64,000 bases of DNA from a virus (lineage: Duplodnaviria > Caudoviricetes), in the IMG/VR virus record IMGVR_UViG_3300029288_000101, positions 32,001-96,000 of that record; one strand, given 5' to 3'. Shown here piece by piece: positions 4,365 through 61,861 of the stretch. The notes under the pieces were generated by a model. That model was not told the DNA's origin and ran no database searches. It saw nothing but the letters and a program-made list of their open reading frames with translations. A program made the position numbers and the translations under genes. Position 1 is the stretch's first letter; each line of letters starts with the position of its first letter.

Positions 4365-5987
4365 TTAATCTTCTTTATTCAAATTATTTAAAAATAATTG
4401 AAGACTTTTTTCAATTGGATTAGTTTCCTCTTCTTCAGGAACAAGAATAGGATTTTGTTCTTCCATTGATTCTTGTCCTTCTTCGCCACCGCCTTGCTGT
4501 TCTTGCATTTGATTCTGTTTCTCCATTTGCAATGCATTTGTATAGACCCCGTCTAACAAAATATCTCCTCCCTGCAAATCTTTTAAACCATGAGATCTTC
4601 TCACCTCATTAACAGTTTTAGATACTTTTGATAATTTAGTATCTAAATCTACTTCTTCTTGAGGAGTTAATCCTGTTAGTCCTTCAAAACTAAATTCATA
4701 TTTTCCTTTATAAAATTGAGAAACCAAAAACTTATTTAATCTCTTTTGTAAAAATTTCAATATTGGAATTAAACCTTTATCTCTACTCCATTTCAATCTC
4801 GCTTCATTGTTACCTTCAAACAAAGACTTCTGACCACTGTTACCACCTTGAGAAAAATTGACTTCTGATGGATCCATGGCGAAAACTGCACACGCTAAAG
4901 TCAACAAATATTGTTGATATTTATTATATTCCATCTCACGATTTGACTTTTGCAAATCTACCCATTCTGCTTTATCTGCTTCTAATATTGGAGTTTTATG
5001 AGCATTATAAACGCCACGCATTTGAGAGTTCCACATTTGTTTGAATTCTTGAACCTTACTTTCGTTCAACATTCCTGAAACTCTTAAAATCCCTTTTGGT
5101 GCACTGCCTTGTTTGAAAAATCTCCTATTATATTCATCTCCCCATAACATAGCTGTTACAGTTGCTGTTAGTTCTTCCAACTCACTTACACCATAACCAT
5201 TTAAATAAATACTTGTGTCTGGGTTTCTTACACCAAAACACATTTCCCAAGGATAAAATTCTGCTTTTACTTGTTGTTGATATACTTGAACATAATTAGG
5301 ATAATAACCTTTTATTTTCTTTCTATTAGAAGTTTGGCCTGCTTGATAATTATCATCATCATAACTATCTGCTATGCGCATCGTTGAACTATCTACTGCA
5401 TAAAATTCACACGGCACACCTTTCCTGTTATGAATAACCTCAAAACACATCTGGTCGTATGTCAATGAATCTCTTATTATTTTTCTAACAAAACCATCAA
5501 AATCATCAGCTTCCCAGCTCTGACCGTCACCACAATTCTCAAGAAACTTAATTATCTCTTCTACTTCTTTTCGTTCTTCTTTTGTTAATTCTTCATTTTG
5601 ATCTTCTCCTTCAAAATTCTTCTTTTTCTTTATTTTATAGCCTATGCCAAATCTATCTGATTGTGGTTCTGCAAATGAAGCTATTTGGTTAATTCTTGTT
5701 CTAATTATTGCATTTATTATTGGCGTTTTCGCCATACTCTTTAGCATATTATAGCTTAATGCTGTTGGTTTATCTTTAAAGCCAAAAGAAGCATTAAATG
5801 CTTGAGGGTCAAAAAGAAAAGATTTGCGATCTCCAGTTTCTCTTGTCTGTATCTGATTTAAAACTTGAGAAGCTTTAATGATATCTGAAGGATTATCTCC
5901 AGTCATCATACCTTCTAAAAGTTTAAATTTTTTTACTTCAAGAATTTGTTGAGCTTTCTCAATTTTTGTTAAAGTTGCAGAAGACAT
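4365..5987 (-). CDS. portal protein
   Basis: RDSLTYDQ, GYGVSELE, RFFKQGSAPKGIL, GLIPILKFL, KTVNEVRR motifs as in SPO1/Twort-like portals. Confidence 0.92.
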   Translation of the reverse strand: MSSATLTKIEKAQQILEVKKFKLLEGMMTGDNPSDIIKASQVLNQIQTRETGDRKSFLFDPQAFNASFGFKDKPTALSYNMLKSMAKTPIINAIIRTRINQIASFAEPQSDRFGIGYKIKKKKNFEGEDQNEELTKEERKEVEEIIKFLENCGDGQSWEADDFDGFVRKIIRDSLTYDQMCFEVIHNRKGVPCEFYAVDSSTMRIADSYDDDNYQAGQTSNRKKIKGYYPNYVQVYQQQVKAEFYPWEMCFGVRNPDTSIYLNGYGVSELEELTATVTAMLWGDEYNRRFFKQGSAPKGILRVSGMLNESKVQEFKQMWNSQMRGVYNAHKTPILEADKAEWVDLQKSNREMEYNKYQQYLLTLACAVFAMDPSEVNFSQGGNSGQKSLFEGNNEARLKWSRDKGLIPILKFLQKRLNKFLVSQFYKGKYEFSFEGLTGLTPQEEVDLDTKLSKVSKTVNEVRRSHGLKDLQGGDILLDGVYTNALQMEKQNQMQEQQGGGEEGQESMEEQNPILVPEEEETNPIEKSLQLFLNNLNKED

Positions 5988-51068: not shown

Positions 51069-51296
51069 TCAAGAGTTATAATTTATTTTATTTTCATACG
51101 CTATTTGTTCCTTAATAACAAACATATTTTCTTTAATGTAATTTTTTACATCACCATAACATTTATTGTTTTCATACAACCACAACAAATAACTGGCTGG
51201 GATATTAGCCATTGTATCACCTTTATATTTACCAAAAGGCATTATCGAATTATCATCCATAATAAATAAATTAAAATAAATTATTCCATAATCCAA
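51069..51296 (-). CDS. DUF3820-like small protein
   Basis: MPFGKYKG..MANIPASYLLWL. Confidence 0.8.
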   Translation of the reverse strand: MDYGIIYFNLFIMDDNSIMPFGKYKGDTMANIPASYLLWLYENNKCYGDVKNYIKENMFVIKEQIAYENKINYNS

Positions 51297-51945: not shown

Positions 51946-52538
51946 TTAGTCATTTAATTCGTTCTTTGTATGTATCTCCGTCCAGCATTTCTGATTAATC
52001 CATGTTGTTAGCACTTTCCATTCTGGCACAAATTTACCAACTTCTTTAAAAGCCTTGCGCCATTTTATTTGGTTTTGTAAAGCTGGTAGGAGTTTAGGTA
52101 TTATCTCATTCCAATCCTTATTTTTATTTGTAAAGTTTTCAAACTCTTCATTTAATCCTCTTTTAGTTCCAATATAACTAACTCTGAATTTTTCAAATTC
52201 TGCTTTTAAATTTTCATTAAGATTAAGATTTTCATTAACATTTACATTATTATTAGCTTTTGTTTTGCTTATCTTTCGCTTCCGTTTCGCTTCCATTTCG
52301 CTTTCTTTTTACTCTTGTTTTGGTTGTTTGCCGTTAATATATCTTTGTCTATTTGCCTCTAATTGAGGCTTTATAAGAATAAATATTGTTTTAGAAATTC
52401 CGGTTAATTCAACTTCATTAAAATTTAAAGAGAACTCAAAAATTGCTTTAAAAACTTCATTTTGGTTTTGTTCTGGAAGCTCTTTTATTGCTTCATAAAA
52501 ACTCCTGTAAAAAAAATAAAACTATCTCTATTTTCCAT
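51946..52538 (-). pseudogene. DUF6291-family replication-initiator-like pseudogene
   Basis: MENRDSFIF/YRSFYEAIKELP...IKPQLEAN...NG; frameshift in T8 run near 52505..52512 and in-frame TAA 52309..52311; NNNVNVNEN linker; TWINQKCW. Confidence 0.8.
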
Positions 52539-53085: not shown

Positions 53086-53276
53086 ATTTTTATTAAGTTT
53101 TAATTTTCTGTTTTTATAATCATTTTACTTTTGGTAATTCTTTAAAACATTTATCACATTGCCTAACTCCATATATGTAGCGTTTAGGTTTTTTGCAAGA
53201 GCAAACTGAACTATTAATGTATAATAAGCGTAATTTCGCCTGATCCTTATCAAATATTTCTAATGTTTTCATAAAA

Positions 53277-53741
53277 TTTTTTTAATCTTTTTTTAAAGTA
53301 GAGCAATATTGTTGTTTACGCAAAGCTAACATTAGTCATCCGAATAAACACAATGATATTCGATAGTTAATTTAGCTTCTCTTGTAAATTTAAGATCAAC
53401 ATACTTTCCTTCTCTAACAATCTTTACTTTTTTACGCTTAAATTTCGCTTCAAGTTCTTTATTATCACTTATTATTTTAATGCGATAATCTTCTTTAAAC
53501 TTGTTGTAATCGACTGGATAAAGTTCTTCCACATCAAGTGAAATTTCATCTCCGATTTTAAATGGATTTGAAGTTAAATCATACATTGATGTAATTTGAG
53601 TTTCTTCTTCGTTGTCTAAATAAAAATGTATATTCATTTCGTTTAAGTTTATTTGATGTATATTTTATCTGGAAGTTTTTCGATTTCTGTTTTTATAAAC
53701 TTTTTTTTAATCTTTTTTTAAAATAGAGCAATATGGTTGTT
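53277..53741. repeat. about 40-bp direct repeats (53277..53316, 53701..53741) flanking 53332..53637
   Basis: TTTTTTAATCTTTTTTTAAA(G/A)TAGAGCAATAT(T/G)GTTGTT. Confidence 0.8.
53332..53637 (-). CDS. hypothetical protein
   Basis: ORF track. Confidence 0.65.
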   Translation of the reverse strand: MNIHFYLDNEEETQITSMYDLTSNPFKIGDEISLDVEELYPVDYNKFKEDYRIKIISDNKELEAKFKRKKVKIVREGKYVDLKFTREAKLTIEYHCVYSDD

Positions 53742-53949
53742 ATAAACTATTAATTTCTTTAATATAATCGTCAACATTTATTTCATCTAAGAAATTACAC
53801 TCATCAAATTTATCTGATAACCATTTGGAATAAGAAATTAACAGTTCACTTCGTTGCATAACAGCAAATATGGTTAATTTTTCAACAGCCGTATCGTTAT
53901 CAAACCCCCCCCCATTCACCAGTATCTCTATTATAACAGTTACATTCAT
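53740..53949 (-). CDS. hypothetical protein whose N-terminus lies inside an attC-like repeat
   Basis: LTIFAVMQRSELL encoded by the repeat arm and core. Confidence 0.5.
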   Translation of the reverse strand: MNVTVIIEILVNGGGFDNDTAVEKLTIFAVMQRSELLISYSKWLSDKFDECNFLDEINVDDYIKEINSL

Positions 53950-54025
53950 TTATTATTTTTTTTATTTCTTTTTTCATGTTTGTGTTATTTACGTTAAAAC
54001 TAACCATATTTGCGAACCGTTATAT
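53856..54025 (-). repeat. attC-like inverted repeat
   Basis: ATATAAC-ggttc-GCAAATATGGTTAGTTTT ... AAAATTAACCATATTTGC-t-GTTATGC. Confidence 0.7.
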
Positions 54026-54031
54026 GTAATT

Positions 54032-54400
54032 TTAATCCGAAATATTCCCGACAATTTCAAAGTCACCGATATGGTCTCCAAAAAAGAAATTACCATCGCA
54101 TCTATGGCATGAAATACAAATGTATTTAGTCGTAATGTCTAATTGAGCAAACTCAAATCCGTTACAATTTTCACACCAGACGATACATATTCCATCGGCA
54201 TCATAATCACCTTCAAAAACCTTTTTGCCATTTTTGTCTTTTTGATTAATAAACTGGCTTAATGATTTTGGCTCAATGCCAATCCATTTATTTTCGTCAA
54301 TTTCCATAAAAATATCATCTCGTTTTCTTTTAATGGTCATACTTTCGACCCATTCACCAGTATTAATCGATTTTCCTTTAAATAATATTTCTCTTTTCAT
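54032..54400 (-). CDS. YopX-family protein
   Basis: MKREILFKGK...WV, QF...DKNGKKVFEGD, EIVGNI. Confidence 0.85.
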   Translation of the reverse strand: MKREILFKGKSINTGEWVESMTIKRKRDDIFMEIDENKWIGIEPKSLSQFINQKDKNGKKVFEGDYDADGICIVWCENCNGFEFAQLDITTKYICISCHRCDGNFFFGDHIGDFEIVGNISD

Positions 54401-54528
54401 AATTTTTCCTCCTCATTATCAGTTTCAAAATGTTCAGGATTCTTAATTCTGCCTTTATTTGCTCCGTAGCCTAAGAGTATAAGAAAGGCTAACAAGGCTA
54501 TTATTATTACTGTCATAGATTTATTGGT

Positions 54529-54723
54529 TTAAAAGATTATTATAAAAACATTCTGCTTCTTTGTCTGCTTTTTGCATTTATAAATAATAATGTATTTGCT
54601 ATTAAACATATAAAACGAAGCTCTTTCAAAAGAAGTTAAACCGCCCTCAACCAGTTTTTGCATGGGACTTTTAATTTCAAATTCCTTTATAATTTCGTAG
54701 TCATGTTCACAAAATAATTTCAT
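54529..54723 (-). CDS. small hypothetical protein
   Basis: FCEHDY...YKCKK. Confidence 0.5.
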   Translation of the reverse strand: MKLFCEHDYEIIKEFEIKSPMQKLVEGGLTSFERASFYMFNSKYIIIYKCKKQTKKQNVFIIIF

Positions 54724-54884
54724 TTTATTTAAAATATAATAGGTTTTATATCAATTTCTCTTATTTTTAAATTTTTAGCATAAACAATCGCTTCTTTATC
54801 TGTATTACCTGGAATTCGTATTCTTCCTTTACAAACACCATCTTTAAATACAATTATATAATATTTTGACATATAATTTTTATT

Positions 54885-55118
54885 TTATTTAAAATATTTA
54901 CATTTTTCACAATTACCTAGTGCTAAAAATTGATTACAATCAATCGGTCTATTATTTTCTAAACAAACCGATTTTATAACACCAGATAAAATTAATTGTT
55001 TCATTACATAGTTAGCACCAGCAATAAATCCATCATATTGCCCCGTTGCTACTTCACTTGTTAAAGTATGATTTGCATACTCTTTTGCTTTTTCTTTAAT
55101 ATGGTTCTTCGTTATCAT
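54885..55118 (-). CDS. hypothetical protein whose N-terminus lies inside an attC-like repeat
   Basis: AKEYA, FIAGA, QLILSGVIKS encoded by the repeat arm. Confidence 0.6.
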   Translation of the reverse strand: MITKNHIKEKAKEYANHTLTSEVATGQYDGFIAGANYVMKQLILSGVIKSVCLENNRPIDCNQFLALGNCEKCKYFK

Positions 55119-55166
55119 AGTTATTAAATCTTAAATTACAACTAATTTTATCTGTAAACATTATGG
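54974..55166 (-). repeat. attC-like inverted repeat
   Basis: CCATAAT-gttta-CAGATAAAATTAGTTG ... CAATTAATTTTATCTG-gt-GTTATAA. Confidence 0.65.
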
Positions 55167-56948: not shown

Positions 56949-57213
56949 AATATATTTATTTTAATGATTAAATTTTAAATTTATTAATCACAATACTGTG
57001 ACATGGTTTCATAAAAAGTTTTTACCATCTTTTCAAATTCTGGCAAGTCAATATCTTTACTCACATTCATATCAATTCTGTTATCAATATTAATTAATCT
57101 ACATTGATACATTATGCTAATTCTTATTGCCATTGATTTATCATTTTGAAACCTTCTTAAATTATAAAAGAGTATGCCAACTTCATATATTTTCTTTTTT
57201 CATTTTTTTGTTT

Positions 57214-59277
57214 TTATAAAATATAAATCTCAGTGTTATTATTTGAATATAAAACGTTTTGTTTATTATAATTATCATATTTTATTTTTCCTGAAATAGT
57301 AATCAAATCTTTATTCTTTTTAGCCTCTTCTAACTTTTTCTTATATTCTTTCCACTCATCAGACCATATCGTGATTAGAATCTGTTCATAATTACTAAGA
57401 ATTCTCATGCTACCAAACTTACCTTTTTTAGTTTTTCTTTCAACAAGTGTCAGTATTTCTCCTGCCACTGATGCTCTTTTATAATCTTTTTCAACATCAA
57501 AAAAATCTTCTGAATTAATAAACATACCAGCGAGTTTCTTTGATTTTTTCTTAATTATTTCAGGAAAACATAAAATGCCAAAGCCTGTAAGTTCTCGTTG
57601 TTTTCGTAAAAAATTAAAACCTTTTGAATAATAACTTTGTTGCTCTTTAGTTATTAAATCACCAGTAATTTTATGCAAAGATTCTAATAATTCAAATCTA
57701 TCTGCTGCTTCTTCTATTTCATATAGATTATCAAAAGCTCCAGAAAGTATCAAAACCTCTACAATATTCTTTCCACAGTGCTTTCCTTTCATTCTATTAA
57801 TAAAGTTCTTGAGACCCTTAAACTCTCCATTCTGTTTTCGTTCCCTTACAATACACTTCACTATTGCTTCTCCGACACCTTTAATACTCTTTAAAGACCA
57901 ATAAATTACATGACTTTCAACATCACAAGTAAAAGTTCCTTTAGAATAATTAATGTCTGGAGGAGACAGTGTTAAATCTAAATTTCTCTTCTTTATTTCA
58001 TTTATCAATGCAGGTATATCCTCTGGCTTATTATAATTAAAACTAACACAATAAAACTCTTCTGGATAATAGCACTTAAGATATTGACACCAATACGACA
58101 TTATAGAATAAGAGGCAGAATGCGATCTGTTATAGCCATAGCCACTAAAAAATAATAATTTTTTCCATATTTTTTTTGCTTCATTTTTCTCACAACCATT
58201 CTTTAATGCTCCTGAAATAAATTTCTTTTCAAATTCTAAAAATTCTTCTTTTTTAAAATGCTTTATCATTGACCTTATGCGATCAGCCTCAGACAAAGAA
58301 AAACCACCTAAAATATGCACTGCTTGTATAATTTGTTCTTGATAAACAAATAAACCATGAGTTTTTTTAGTTATTTCTTCTAACATATAATCAAACTCAG
58401 GCTCTTTTTTACCATGTTTTATTTCACCATACAAAATATGACTATTACTTTTCATAGGACCAGGGCGAAACAAAGCGTTCATGGCAATTAAATCTTCCAT
58501 ACTATCTGGCTTTACAAATTTACAATAATTCTTTAAACCGCCAGTAGAAAATTGAAATACTTCTTCATTAAAACCTTGAGCAAATATTTTAAACACTTCT
58601 TTATCATTCATAGGGATTTTTTCTAAAATAATATCTTCTTTCCTATGATTCTTTATTAATTTCAAAATCATATCAAATTTATCCAACAAATTTAATCCTA
58701 ATAAATCTTCCTTTAAAAATCCTGCTCTATCTATATACTTCCCTTCCCATTCTGAAACAAGTACATATTGATTAGTTTTCTTATCTAATATCTTTCTAAC
58801 AGGAACCCATTCAAATATATCTTTTCTTTCTCCATTAATATCTTTTCTTGGAACTATTAACACTGCTGAAGCATGTATAGAGTTTGTTTTTGGTTGTCCC
58901 ATTACATTTTTCAACTGATTAATTAGCTTAAAATTTTCTTGAATAAATTTTGCTAATTCTATAGATTGTTGAGCATACTTAAATAAATCTTCAAATTTAT
59001 AATCAAGTTGATCGTCTATCTTTTTAGTTAAAAAATTCATTTGAGAAGGTGTAAAAGATGTGTTAACTCTTGCAAAATCTTTTAAAATGCCCTTTAACTT
59101 TAATCTTGTAAAAGTACCAACAGAAGCAACATAATTCTCACCATATTTGCTTTCTAAATATCTCTTAACATCGTCTTTCCTTATGCTGCTATAATCTACA
59201 TCAACATCAGGTAATTGGTCGGAACGTAATTTACTCTCTTTTAATATCTTAATTATTTTTGCCATCCATTCCCCCAT
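57214..59277 (-). CDS. dnaE: DNA polymerase III alpha, C-terminal fragment (start probably 59265)
   Basis: LPDVDVDY, HASAV, KEDLLGL, VFQF, FRPGP, VYQEQ, YGYNRSHS, PDINYS, HhH and OB fold. Confidence 0.93.
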   Translation of the reverse strand: MGEWMAKIIKILKESKLRSDQLPDVDVDYSSIRKDDVKRYLESKYGENYVASVGTFTRLKLKGILKDFARVNTSFTPSQMNFLTKKIDDQLDYKFEDLFKYAQQSIELAKFIQENFKLINQLKNVMGQPKTNSIHASAVLIVPRKDINGERKDIFEWVPVRKILDKKTNQYVLVSEWEGKYIDRAGFLKEDLLGLNLLDKFDMILKLIKNHRKEDIILEKIPMNDKEVFKIFAQGFNEEVFQFSTGGLKNYCKFVKPDSMEDLIAMNALFRPGPMKSNSHILYGEIKHGKKEPEFDYMLEEITKKTHGLFVYQEQIIQAVHILGGFSLSEADRIRSMIKHFKKEEFLEFEKKFISGALKNGCEKNEAKKIWKKLLFFSGYGYNRSHSASYSIMSYWCQYLKCYYPEEFYCVSFNYNKPEDIPALINEIKKRNLDLTLSPPDINYSKGTFTCDVESHVIYWSLKSIKGVGEAIVKCIVRERKQNGEFKGLKNFINRMKGKHCGKNIVEVLILSGAFDNLYEIEEAADRFELLESLHKITGDLITKEQQSYYSKGFNFLRKQRELTGFGILCFPEIIKKKSKKLAGMFINSEDFFDVEKDYKRASVAGEILTLVERKTKKGKFGSMRILSNYEQILITIWSDEWKEYKKKLEEAKKNKDLITISGKIKYDNYNKQNVLYSNNNTEIYIL

Positions 59278-60215
59278 CTTTCATATTTTCCCCAACGAAA
59301 TCCACCAGCTTGTTCTTGTTTACCATATACACAACTTATAATTTCTCTTGCTTTTATGCCTGTTTCTTCAGAAGCTTCTTTCCAATCTAAATACATCTTA
59401 ATGTATTTTCCTCTTAAATTCATTTTAATAATTTTTTGAGATTTCAAATATTTCCAATAAAAACCACCTGCTATTTTTGTAAAATTACTACCACCAGCAC
59501 TACATATTGAACCTCTATTAATCCCTGTCTGTCTAGAAGCATCCCCAGAACCATCATATTCTTTTATAAATTTTTTATTTAGATCAAATTGTAGTATTTT
59601 TTGTGACATTCTTTTCCTATTTTTAATTTTTTGTTCTTCAGACCATTTATTATTAAAATTAGGATTATTTTCTCCTTTATTTTGTATTTTTTTTATTTTT
59701 CTTAAATTCTCTTTTTGTTCTTCAGACCATTTATTACCAAAATTAGGATTCTTGTCTCCTATTAAATTTTTTCCTAATTCACTCAAATGTTTAATTAATT
59801 CTGGATGTTCTTTATAATATTTCTTTCTTAATTTTGAAATTTTCTTAAGAGTCTTTTTCCCTCTCTTTGTTTTATAAAATTTTTTTAAAGATTTTTTAAA
59901 TTTTTCAACAACTTCTGGGATTTTCATTGGTGAGCCAGAACCAAATTTATTTGCTATTCCAGGAAGAATATTATAGCCTATCTTATTATCTGTAGAGTTA
60001 AATTCTTTTATAAAATATTTTTCATATAAATCTAATTGTTCTTGTGTCTTACATTTTATTAATGTAATTCTTTCAAAACTTTCTTCTCCATATTTCTTAA
60101 TAGCATATTTAATATTTCTTCCTGATCCTATATAATTTTGATCTTCTCCAGAATATTGTCCAATATAAATTTTGCTATTAATTAAATTTGTTGTTAAATA
60201 AATAATCCCTTTCAT
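59253..60215 (-). mobile_element. free-standing GIY-YIG homing endonuclease with NUMOD3/NUMOD1 modules
   Basis: GIIY...KIYIGQ...YIGSG, GYNI; NPNFGNKWSEEQK x2; AGGFYWKY and AGGFRW. Confidence 0.92.
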
Positions 60216-60232
60216 AATTAGCTTTAACTAAT

Positions 60233-61861
60233 TTATACCTGATATTGACTAAGACTTTTAAAATCTTCTTTTGTTAGCTCTTTCCCTTCTTTTAAAAATT
60301 CAAAATCTTTTTCTGGAATGTTAAATTTTCTTCCATCATCTAATTCAACAATCAATCTTTTCTCCAAAGTTCCTCTCGTTTCATTCAAAAATCTTTCAAA
60401 CAATAAATCATATTTAATCGGATCTACAGTTGTTATATCAATTAAAAAAGCAACTAAAGAGCCAGCTACTGAACCACGAGCATTGCCAACTCTTATTTTA
60501 TTACTCTTTGCCCAACTTATTATATCAAAATTTATCAAAAAATAATCAAGAAAACCTAATCTTAAAATAAAATCTCTTTCATATTGCATTCGCTCTTTAT
60601 ATTCTTTCAATTTACTTTTTTCTACCTTCCCTAATATTTTCTTTCGCCACCCATCTTGAATTAAATAATCAAACAATTCAGTCTTATCTCCCTCATAAGG
60701 AAACAAAGGTAATTTTGGGATACCAAGTTGTATTTTAAAGTTACATTCTTCAACAATTTTATTTACATTATTAATTGCAAGTTCTAATATTTGCTCGCCT
60801 TCTAAATCATTATATTTCTTCCCTTCTGGAAAATAATCAATTAAATTTCTCACTGATTCTTCTACATCTTTATAATGCTCATTTTTACTATAAGGTCTAA
60901 ATTCTCCTGCAAGTTTTCCTAAACTTAATCTGGACTCATATTCTTCTGGTTCAAGATAATAAGAGTCATTTATTAAAACTGGTTCTATTGTGTCAGCAAA
61001 CTCCTCCAAATATTGCTTGATGGAAAACAAATGTCTCTTCTCAAACTCAAGGTTTTCATATTTGACTGAATCCATTTGAAAATATACTTCATCAAAGCAC
61101 TTCTTTAATAACTTAACATAGCTTTTATTCAAAAAACTTTCCTTGAACAAAACTAAAATTAAGCCTGTTCCAAATTCCAAAAATTGTTTCTCTTTTATAA
61201 ATCCTTCATTGATTACATTTATTTCTTTATTTATCCTTAATAAATTTTTCCATCCTTCTTCATTTTTAACGTATAATTTTACATCATATTTTTCATTTTC
61301 AGTGTTTTCATCATAAAGTATTGTTACTGTCTCTCCTAATATTGGTTTTATTCCTTTTTCTGTACAGGATATTTGAAAAGGTAATGTTCCTGCTAAAGAA
61401 TTTTTATCTACTATTCCTAAACTTTTATGCCCTAAAAATATTGCCTTTTGACACCACGCTTTTGCTGAATGAGAACCTGAAAGGAGTTCATATTCATCGT
61501 GAACACCAAGATGATTAAAAATAATTTTATTTTTATTCTCCGCTTCTCCAAGATATTTAAAATCAATCAAAACGCAAGGAACAATTAAATTTCCTTGTTT
61601 GTCTTCTAATTCTAAATTTACTTTTGAATAATAATATTGACCACCAAAAAGAAAAACAACAAATTCAATCCTATTATTTTGTATTGATATTTGTTCTTTT
61701 TCTGTTAAAACCAAATTAAAATCCTTATCAATAATAATTTCCTTTTCAGATAAAAGTAAAAAGTTGCCAAATCCTTTTATTGAATTAATATTATCTTCTA
61801 AGAAATCTTGTTGAAGCTGTATTTTATTTCTTTTAACCCAATTATTAAATCGTTCTAACAT
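60233..61861 (-). CDS. dnaE: DNA polymerase III alpha, N-terminal fragment (PHP domain plus palm start)
   Basis: HLGVHDEYELL, KPILGE, NDSYY, GNARGSVAGSLVAF, LLFERFLN. Confidence 0.92.
   Translation of the reverse strand: MLERFNNWVKRNKIQLQQDFLEDNINSIKGFGNFLLLSEKEIIIDKDFNLVLTEKEQISIQNNRIEFVVFLFGGQYYYSKVNLELEDKQGNLIVPCVLIDFKYLGEAENKNKIIFNHLGVHDEYELLSGSHSAKAWCQKAIFLGHKSLGIVDKNSLAGTLPFQISCTEKGIKPILGETVTILYDENTENEKYDVKLYVKNEEGWKNLLRINKEINVINEGFIKEKQFLEFGTGLILVLFKESFLNKSYVKLLKKCFDEVYFQMDSVKYENLEFEKRHLFSIKQYLEEFADTIEPVLINDSYYLEPEEYESRLSLGKLAGEFRPYSKNEHYKDVEESVRNLIDYFPEGKKYNDLEGEQILELAINNVNKIVEECNFKIQLGIPKLPLFPYEGDKTELFDYLIQDGWRKKILGKVEKSKLKEYKERMQYERDFILRLGFLDYFLINFDIISWAKSNKIRVGNARGSVAGSLVAFLIDITTVDPIKYDLLFERFLNETRGTLEKRLIVELDDGRKFNIPEKDFEFLKEGKELTKEDFKSLSQYQV

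Follow-up and report, generated by a model that had tools for sequence, protein, structure and literature searches.

Two hairpin sites in the small-gene array of an uncultured phage, probable members of an integron-like cassette family

The window analysed here is a stretch of 64,000 nucleotides (nt) of the IMG/VR virus record IMGVR_UViG_3300029288_000101. It covers bases 32001-96000 of a viral genome of 109,727 bp that is complete according to CheckV and has a G+C content of 29%. Between 50 and 57 kb the window carries only small minus-strand genes, found downstream of a DnaE-type polymerase. Two genes of this array of about 25 are headed by long inverted repeats, named E1 and E2, that resemble the attC sites of integrons. 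We consider it likely that E1 and E2 belong to a widespread family of sites whose folding is strand-specific and each of which heads a single-gene cassette of an integron-like shuffling system in uncultured phages. The hosts of these phages are probably Bacteroidota. The sites and their cassettes have the following layout in window coordinates, the minus strand being the gene-sense strand.

53858..54023, minus strand: E1, attC-like site with an expanded loop, 166 nt in full length; an inverted repeat matched by covariance model R1 (see below), whose fold forms a long stem
54023-54019, minus strand: E1 5' core ATAAC, followed by the spacer GGTTC (54018-54014) and the 5' arm (54013-53996)
53995-53882, minus strand: E1 loop
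53881-53864, minus strand: E1 3' arm, followed by the spacer T (53863) and the 3' core GTTAT (53862-53858)
53739..54019, minus strand: E1 cassette, composed of spacer, hairpin, gene of 69 amino acids (aa) and end core; a homologous cassette is found at L184:389-693
53740-53949, minus strand: E1 gene, 69 aa, with a second in-frame ATG in the 3' core (GTT-ATG, 53859-53857)
53744-53739, minus strand: E1 end core TATAAC, which includes the stop codon of the E1 gene
54976..55164, minus strand: E2, attC-like site with an expanded loop, partly decayed, 189 nt in full length; an inverted repeat conserved as a site in homologues L080-L084
55164-55160, minus strand: E2 5' core ATAAT, which includes the upstream stop codon TAA, followed by the spacer GTTTA (55159-55155) and the 5' arm (55154-55138)
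55137-55000, minus strand: E2 loop, with the ATG at 55118
54999-54983, minus strand: E2 3' arm, followed by the spacer GT and the 3' core GTTAT (54980-54976)
54885..55118, minus strand: E2 cassette gene, 77 aa with a Cys-rich C-terminal half; eight homologues

Both repeats, noticed in a first-pass annotation made from the sequence, exist and share one layout when described on the gene-sense strand, with arms of 17-18 nt. The arms of E1 (18 nt) are 114 nt apart and those of E2 (17 nt) 138 nt apart, each pair having one mismatch that is a G.U wobble on the sense strand. As the annotation had proposed, each element starts at or just after the upstream stop codon and its loop takes in the start of the next gene, so that the 3' arm is translated, as LTIFAV in E1 and LILSGV in E2. 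Besides a leader, the E1 loop contains the ATG at 53949 and 22 codons. The genome has four inverted repeats whose arms of 17 nt or more carry no more than one mismatch and are separated by 20-300 nt, against 0.6 expected in second-order Markov sequences, and the two that are not E1 and E2 are composed of A and T only. Both stems form in the minimum-free-energy folds of the sense RNA (z-scores of -1.6 for E1 and -2.8 for E2).

Three simple accounts of the pair were rejected. The E1 and E2 genes are not recognizable paralogues, as BLASTP gives no match and the identity of the 3' arms (12/17) is marginal in AT-rich DNA. A genome-wide boundary motif is not supported, as ATAAYGKTT is not enriched in the genome and arms accompany it only at E1 and E2. 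A miniature transposon with terminal repeats is not supported either: target duplication is absent, and the interiors are coding sequences that differ from each other. The annotation also held that the hairpins structure the small-gene array, which they do not do here because there are only two sites among about 25 small genes.

Across the E1/E2 region the window has at least 99.9% identity to four further assemblies, each from an independent sample; samples in which the phage is present include ERZ27247350, SRR8542065, SRR6484787 and IMG 3300035208. The five assemblies differ there only by the length of a poly-G run in the E1 loop (9 or 10) and by one single-nucleotide polymorphism, with no inversion, cassette loss or arm change among them. 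Breakpoints are unmappable within the phage's own lineage because these assemblies are near-identical, and a collection of cultured phages gave no match at the DNA level. The poly-G run (9 G on the sense strand, 53905-53913) lies inside both the E1 loop and the 69-aa gene, and has 10 G in three independent assemblies and 9 G in two. With 10 G the start of the 69-aa gene is limited to a downstream ATG (58 aa), while the in-frame ATG of the 3' core is unaffected. The difference reflects slippage-type phase variation or else an error of the assemblies at the homopolymer.

A direct search of viral contigs with the E2 protein retrieved nothing, and its eight homologues (50-78% identity) lie on short metagenome contigs. 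Five of these loci, L080-L084, keep ATAAC-GGTTN-CAGATAAAATTAGTTG ... CAATTAATTTTATCTG-GT-GTTAT at the same place, the 5' arm lying at -35 to -20 from the ATG and the 3' arm in the QLILSG codons. The cassette is found in five contexts that are unrelated to the neighbours in the window and to each other: one features DnaB and a gene that weakly matches the Acb2/Tad1 type, another RecT and adenylosuccinate synthase. DNA similarity among the homologues (alignment A2) sets in sharply at ATAAC-GGTTN-CAGATAAAATTAGTTG and breaks off just as sharply at ...GTTTTATAAC. Within these limits about 41 nt around the 3' arm show zero synonymous change, unlike the neighbouring codons. The N-terminal half of the protein is encoded mid-loop, where three variants exist; the variable part of the E2 family is there and not at a core. 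The window copy has ATAAT for ATAAC, loses similarity after ...GAAAAATGTAAATATTTT and lacks the ...GTTTTATAAC end core; with its 5' core altered and its end core lost, E2 is already decaying. A cassette beside one E2 homologue (L081:2396-2737) codes for a protein of 113 aa with an Acb2/Tad1 hairpin-domain match of 20.3 bits, below the 27-bit cutoff, which suggests anti-defence cargo in these arrays.

The E2 homologues are flanked by compact canonical sites. These hairpins of 48-85 nt, which directly follow E2-type cassettes and also occupy further junctions in those contigs, have the same feet and spacing with other arms. They define a family with the consensus (T)ATAAC-GKTTN-GCA..arm..TGC-T-GTTAT, which forms sense-strand hairpins at gene junctions of many uncultured phages; further copies of the architecture are therefore abundant. 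The strict search pattern TATAACGKTTNGCA-N(15-45)-TGCTGTTAT finds 35 viral contigs, against fewer than one expected by our own rough estimate of chance, and 33 of the 35 show the predicted fold. Among 22 distinct sites 92% of the arm-pair cells are paired, compared to 25-53% in slid controls, and double changes are found in 8 of the 11 arm pairs.

A covariance model built from the sites of other phages, R1, retrieves 57 sites in 30 loci; a locus often has several of them, all on one strand and one small gene apart. AAC-G, the first G of the arm and T-GTTA are invariant in all 57. The internal loop is asymmetric (GKTTN, 5 nt, versus T, 1 nt), and 13 of the 22 distinct sites lack a pair at the fourth arm position, which is usually a G.G mismatch. 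Non-Watson-Crick pairs of the 57 sites comprise 38 G.U versus 4 A.C on the sense strand, in an alignment that is fitted to the model and hence biased towards structure; because G.U pairs far outnumber A.C pairs, the gene-sense strand is taken as the one that folds. The annotation's description of the elements as attC-like and conserved in structure rather than in sequence thus stands up well, with invariant cores, covarying arms, an unpaired asymmetric spacer and a frequent conserved mismatch. By analogy, the conserved unpaired spacer and the fixed mismatch point to recognition of the folded site by a protein.

Long-loop members with an ATG in the loop, like E1 and E2, recur at other loci, including arrays that adjoin a recombinase gene, and translation reads their 3' core as GCT-GTT-ATN (Ala-Val-Ile/Met). 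With compact sites the gene starts at the ATG of GTT-ATG in some cases and more often 30-55 nt past the hairpin, which is followed by a conserved GGATTATTAAC motif and then by an A-rich leader; in long-loop sites the motif lies inside the loop. Rfam 15 gave no match in the window at gathering thresholds, nor in 8 hairpin-bearing loci at E-values up to 1, which excludes a known RNA family. Among 185,579 prokaryote genomes the strict pattern has seven matches, about chance level, of which two are true members, both on small contigs. The family is essentially confined to viral contigs.

A covariance-model search, one of the checks suggested at the outset, connects E1 to this family. R1, which includes no sequence of the window phage, matches 53858-54027 on the minus strand with 20.2 bits (E-value 0.0022) and a loop insertion of 109 nt. 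The E1 protein has one weak match in a direct search of viral contigs; its homologue in locus L184 has 38% identity (E-value 6e-10). The L184 site has the long-loop layout, CTAAC-GTTTA-GCGTATTGTTGCA ... TGCAACAATACGC-T-GTTATGCAACGAAGTGAAC, and its arms are wholly different from those of E1 yet complementary, that is, covarying, while 22 nt at the 3' core, GCTGTTATGCAACGAAGTGAAC, are identical in both. The homologous cassette (389-693) ends in ATAAC directly before an attI-like simple site, being the final cassette ahead of this site and a recombinase gene. Among the half-site remnants that the annotation had listed, TTATAAC near 53738 is accepted as the end core of the E1 cassette because the L184 homologue ends likewise, while CCTAAC at about 51700 and GTTAGC at about 53325 are indistinguishable from chance.

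The recombinase was recognized in a record where a tyrosine recombinase of 267 aa is encoded about 150 nt past a three-site array and shares the strand of that array. Its best scores are those with XerA/XerC/XerD models, and IntI models align to it in two pieces that skip about 60 IntI residues. From these alignments the linked enzyme is classed as a small Xer-like recombinase without the IntI-specific insert. Its relatives occur in 203 viral stretches. In the best 80 of these 203 loci all R1 matches (86/86) lie upstream of the recombinase gene on the same strand. An independent structural scan of 27 loci, with about 6 kb on each side, found 144 sites upstream on the same strand, 1 downstream and 0 on the opposite strand, at least one site being present in 26 of the 27. 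A simple site, TAAC-TAYTATATRTA, with the same TAAC core as the hairpin sites, precedes the recombinase ATG by 45-65 nt in about 30 of 34 loci. Directly before the simple site of L188 and L180 (at about 5840-5900) there is a hairpin with reversed core order, GTTATGGCA-TCGTTTTAATG-TGCCATAAC, in which the two cores form a stem around the loop consensus of the family.

The window phage has neither of these components. The annotation had noted that the window holds no integrase, and this extends to the full genome: no tyrosine or serine recombinase (PF00589, PF00239) was found in the entire 109,727 bp, nor an attI-like simple site. The search for a tyrosine recombinase that it had proposed thus failed in the phage itself and succeeded in other phages, where the 267-aa Xer-like enzyme adjoins arrays of the family. 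Because this phage has no recombinase and no simple site, the E1 and E2 cassettes are orphans.

Movement of a cassette can be followed in three contigs, L195, L196 and L215, which have common blocks at 99.9-100% identity. A cassette of 960 nt is internal in L215, and in L195 and L196 it immediately adjoins the simple site and recombinase; L195 also retains the final part of the old copy. On the right the contigs are identical up to and including ...GTATAAC, after which the sequence continues either into the G-spacer-hairpin of the next cassette or into TATTTTATATA of the simple site, and at the left junction the flanks differ as far as TAAC. Since the junctions of these near-identical contigs fall there, the exchange point is placed inside the 5' core TAAC of the sense strand and the cassette unit is composed of spacer, hairpin, gene and ...TAAC. 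Breakpoint mapping, possible in these relatives and not in the window phage, therefore locates junctions at a core as anticipated, the core being TAAC at the 5' foot of the hairpin and not the in-gene GTT at which the annotation had recombination occur. Its corollary that protein C-termini are swapped is unsupported with a crossover at TAAC: whole genes move, no swapped C-terminus was found, and the variation of the E2 family is in mid-loop.

A complete system is then a row of same-strand units (spacer, hairpin, gene, ...TAAC) that ends at TAAC-TAYTATATRTA, followed on the same strand by the gene for the Xer-like recombinase of about 267 aa. The site folds on the gene-sense strand, as the wobble asymmetry shows, and the junctions show cutting and joining of cassettes inside the 5' core TAAC. 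They may re-enter at the recombinase-proximal simple site, an event seen once as a moved and duplicated cassette, and the linkage suggests that the recombinase performs these steps. The long loop is a regular variant of the family in which the leader, the start codon and the first 20-40 codons are in the loop and the 3' arm and core are translated. The window cassettes were probably acquired from recombinase-bearing phages and would at best be mobilisable in trans by these. In this form the cassette-shuffling system imagined in the annotation finds good support in relatives, as mobile one-gene cassettes in arrays that adjoin a tyrosine recombinase gene and an attI-like site; it is not borne out as to the enzyme, which is not an integron integrase, nor for the window phage, whose cassettes are orphans.

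Several findings weigh against such a cassette system. R1 does not detect E2, whose membership thus rests on its homologues, and the five independent assemblies show no sign of ongoing rearrangement in the region. Among 14 other hairpin-bearing viral records 12 have no tyrosine recombinase, 7 of them being at least 95% complete, and the window genome is likewise devoid of one; sites that persist without enzyme fit a regulatory role too. The genes to both sides of one hairpin variant differ from case to case, so that homologous exchange in an element of about 55 nt fits as well as site-specific exchange. The folded strand is the mRNA-sense strand and the sites lie between a stop and a start codon, followed by the GGATTATTAAC motif and the A-rich leader, as expected of an RNA or transcription signal. 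Catalysis by the Xer-like protein, finally, is argued from strict linkage to its gene.

Much of this would be accounted for if the hairpins were mainly regulatory, an alternative that we hold to be unlikely although it is the main one: they would be terminators, attenuators or RNA-processing or stabilising stem-loops with promoter and leader. Shuffling would then be a by-product of homologous recombination between repeats of about 55 nt, and the recombinase linkage that of an operon ending with a phage integrase. Sense-strand specificity with G.U wobbles, the placement between stop and start codons ahead of a conserved motif and leader, the identical hairpins with different genes on either side and the absence of any tyrosine recombinase from most carriers all agree with it. 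The succession of lower stem, asymmetric internal loop and upper stem also resembles the RNase III sites of phage T7, which have this organization. There is a precedent in the promoter-early stem-loops (PeSLs) of T4-type phages, which combine a sigma-70 promoter with a terminator (PMC2839356, PMC4122927). However, the counts of 144, 1 and 0 sites around one small Xer-like family, in contigs of widely varying size, are hard to obtain from an operon layout. The TAAC core common to the recombinase-proximal site, the precise move of a cassette to the simple site with junctions inside TAAC, and the conserved unpaired spacer and fixed mismatch, which point to protein recognition, speak likewise for the cassette system. 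The hairpin is also not a classical intrinsic terminator, as no U-tract follows the stem. Regulatory and recombination roles are not mutually exclusive.

It is improbable that the repeats act in mRNA only, the stems that enclose the translation start tuning translation or stability for the two genes (69 and 77 aa) and playing no part at the DNA level. The stems in the minimum-free-energy folds (z-scores of -1.6 and -2.8), the sense-strand wobbles and the 41 nt or so without synonymous change around the E2 3' arm are in keeping with such a role, but the z-scores are modest, and the invariant cores and spacer common to hundreds of sites in other phages, the TAAC cassette boundaries and the recombinase linkage would be left unexplained. 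Hardly any weight can be given to invertons that switch both genes, although repeats of 17-18 nt around 114-138 nt are within the known inverton size, since there is a single orientation in five assemblies, no invertase or other tyrosine or serine recombinase in the genome and an inversion of E1 would shift its downstream part out of frame, or to chance repeats, some of which are expected at 29% G+C, since these are excluded by the shuffles, the conservation of the E2 stem in homologues, the R1 match to E1 and the covarying arms of L184.

The proposed cassette system has a good deal in common with integrons: imperfect hairpins conserved in structure, AAC...GTT cores, an unpaired spacer, which is a likeness of form, and a fixed mismatch; one folding strand (38 G.U versus 4 A.C); and one-gene cassettes in same-strand arrays with a simple site beside a tyrosine recombinase. 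In relatives of the cassettes, and not in the window phage, a crossover in the AAC core and re-insertion at the recombinase-proximal site may be added. E1 and E2, 1.1 kb apart in a recombinase-less genome, are reminiscent of the orphan clusters of attC sites lacking integron-integrases (CALINs), with the distinction that they are recognized by the family's own model and by homologues instead of the standard attC model. The system is, though, not a classical integron. Its Xer-like recombinase of about 267 aa has no IntI insert and is encoded downstream of, and co-directionally with, the array. Cassette genes lie on the folding strand with the site 5' of the gene, and in E1 and E2 the start codon inside it, whereas the attC of integrons is at the 3' end of a gene carried by the non-folding strand. 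Site polarity, simple site and recombinase are arranged as in the reverse complement of an integron, except that the genes run with the recombinase, and the site is for this reason at the gene 5' end. The cores TATAAC-G and T-GTTAT-A/G do not fit strict RYYYAAC/GTTRRRY, E1 and E2 have 166 and 189 nt versus the usual 57-141 nt of attC sites, and the family is essentially viral (two true matches to the strict pattern among 185,579 prokaryote genomes).

Clusters of attC sites without integrase were described in virulent phages, including Polaribacter phage P12002L, and the integron integrase IntI1 recombined one predicted site of this phage, P12002L_attC2 (Qi et al. 2023, PMC9892861). R1 has weak matches between methyltransferase genes of P12002L, in the region of the published attC cluster, and the loop TCGTTTTAATG is identical to that of the family; these matches could not be confirmed as the sites assayed in that study. 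The related region of P12002L carries DNA methyltransferases. Within a limited literature search no paper on Xer-linked arrays was found.

Like PeSLs, the elements described here are repeated stem-loops with a conserved downstream motif (GGATTATTAAC, a putative promoter) between small non-essential phage genes, and exchange at them shuffles single-gene modules among phages. PeSLs presumably recombine by homology and have no recombinase of their own (Arbiol et al. 2010, PMC2839356; Comeau et al. 2014, PMC4122927), while here the stem feet and spacer are invariant, the arms covary, junctions fall in a 4-nt core, and a specific recombinase and simple site are linked. The window phage is also not T4-type, having a DnaE-type polymerase and relatives of about 90-100 kb. 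A Xer enzyme that acts on a site existing only when one DNA strand folds is known from the attP(+) hairpin of CTX-phi and the host XerCD, where the whole phage genome integrates at the host dif site by means of host enzymes. Here single genes are arranged in arrays, the enzyme is phage-encoded where present and no dif-like sequence was identified. Invertons are not a fitting class for E1 and E2, with one orientation in five assemblies and no recombinase.

Close to E1 the array features a direct repeat some 50 nt long (sense strand, AACAATATTGCTCTACTTTAAAAAAAGATTAAAAAAA), present in two copies of 86-95% identity where none are expected by chance.

53263..53316, minus strand: direct repeat copy 1, after the core-like GTAAAC; heads a 50-aa gene (53120-53272)
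53688..53741, minus strand: direct repeat copy 2, directly after the E1 end core TATAAC; heads a 101-aa gene (53332-53637)

In copy 2 the segment AACCATATTGCTCTAT looks, on reading by eye and with no statistics, like the E1 3' arm plus core. The repeat may be a promoter or hairpin-less leader, or the remnant of a site that is deprived of its 5' arm and loop. The 50-aa gene at 53120-53272 has a homologue of 79% identity between two hairpins of the recombinase-linked array of L138, and a 49-aa gene (56984-57133) has one of 65% identity upstream of the recombinase in L161.

Other parts of the region have features of their own. The DnaE-type polymerase, whose other relatives have merely about 40% protein identity, is split in two open reading frames on the minus strand (57214-61861). 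The frame at 60233-61861 codes for the PHP domain and for the Pol III alpha domain up to position 99, and the one at 57214-59277 for the rest, the split being exactly at profile position 99. Between them is a gene for a GIY-YIG/NUMOD homing-endonuclease-like protein of 320 aa (59253-60215). The product of the array gene at 51069-51296 (minus strand) has a match of 36 bits, above cutoff, to the Pfam family QSregVF_b of putative quorum-sensing-regulated factors. A unit of 11 nt (TTTCGCTTCC-like on the plus strand) is present three times in tandem at 52263-52310, at the 5' end of a 116-aa gene (51946-52296).

Integrons are regarded as bacterial devices with a specialised integrase, and the reports from phages so far concern classical parts or attC clusters found by bacterial models. 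The family considered here has traits of its own, namely its site consensus, a mirror-image gene orientation and a different and simpler recombinase. If this recombinase acts on the hairpins, it would be a second, independently built system of cassette exchange, which would explain the spread of small early genes among unrelated phages. To this the window adds that cassettes survive as orphans in a 110-kb phage without the enzyme, that the hairpin loop can take in the start of a gene so that part of the site is translated, and that homologous cassettes keep the stem by fully compensating changes although one arm is coding and the other is not. Tentatively, one may go further and picture a gene capture run by phages, integron-like in its logic, with a minimal Xer-type recombinase and a site at the cassette 5' end that can enclose promoter or leader and start codon. 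One hairpin would govern both mobility, as sense-strand DNA, and expression, as 5' structure of the mRNA. Orphan cassettes of recombinase-less, lytic-type phages might be passed on in trans at co-infection, so that small early and anti-defence genes would form a shared pool.

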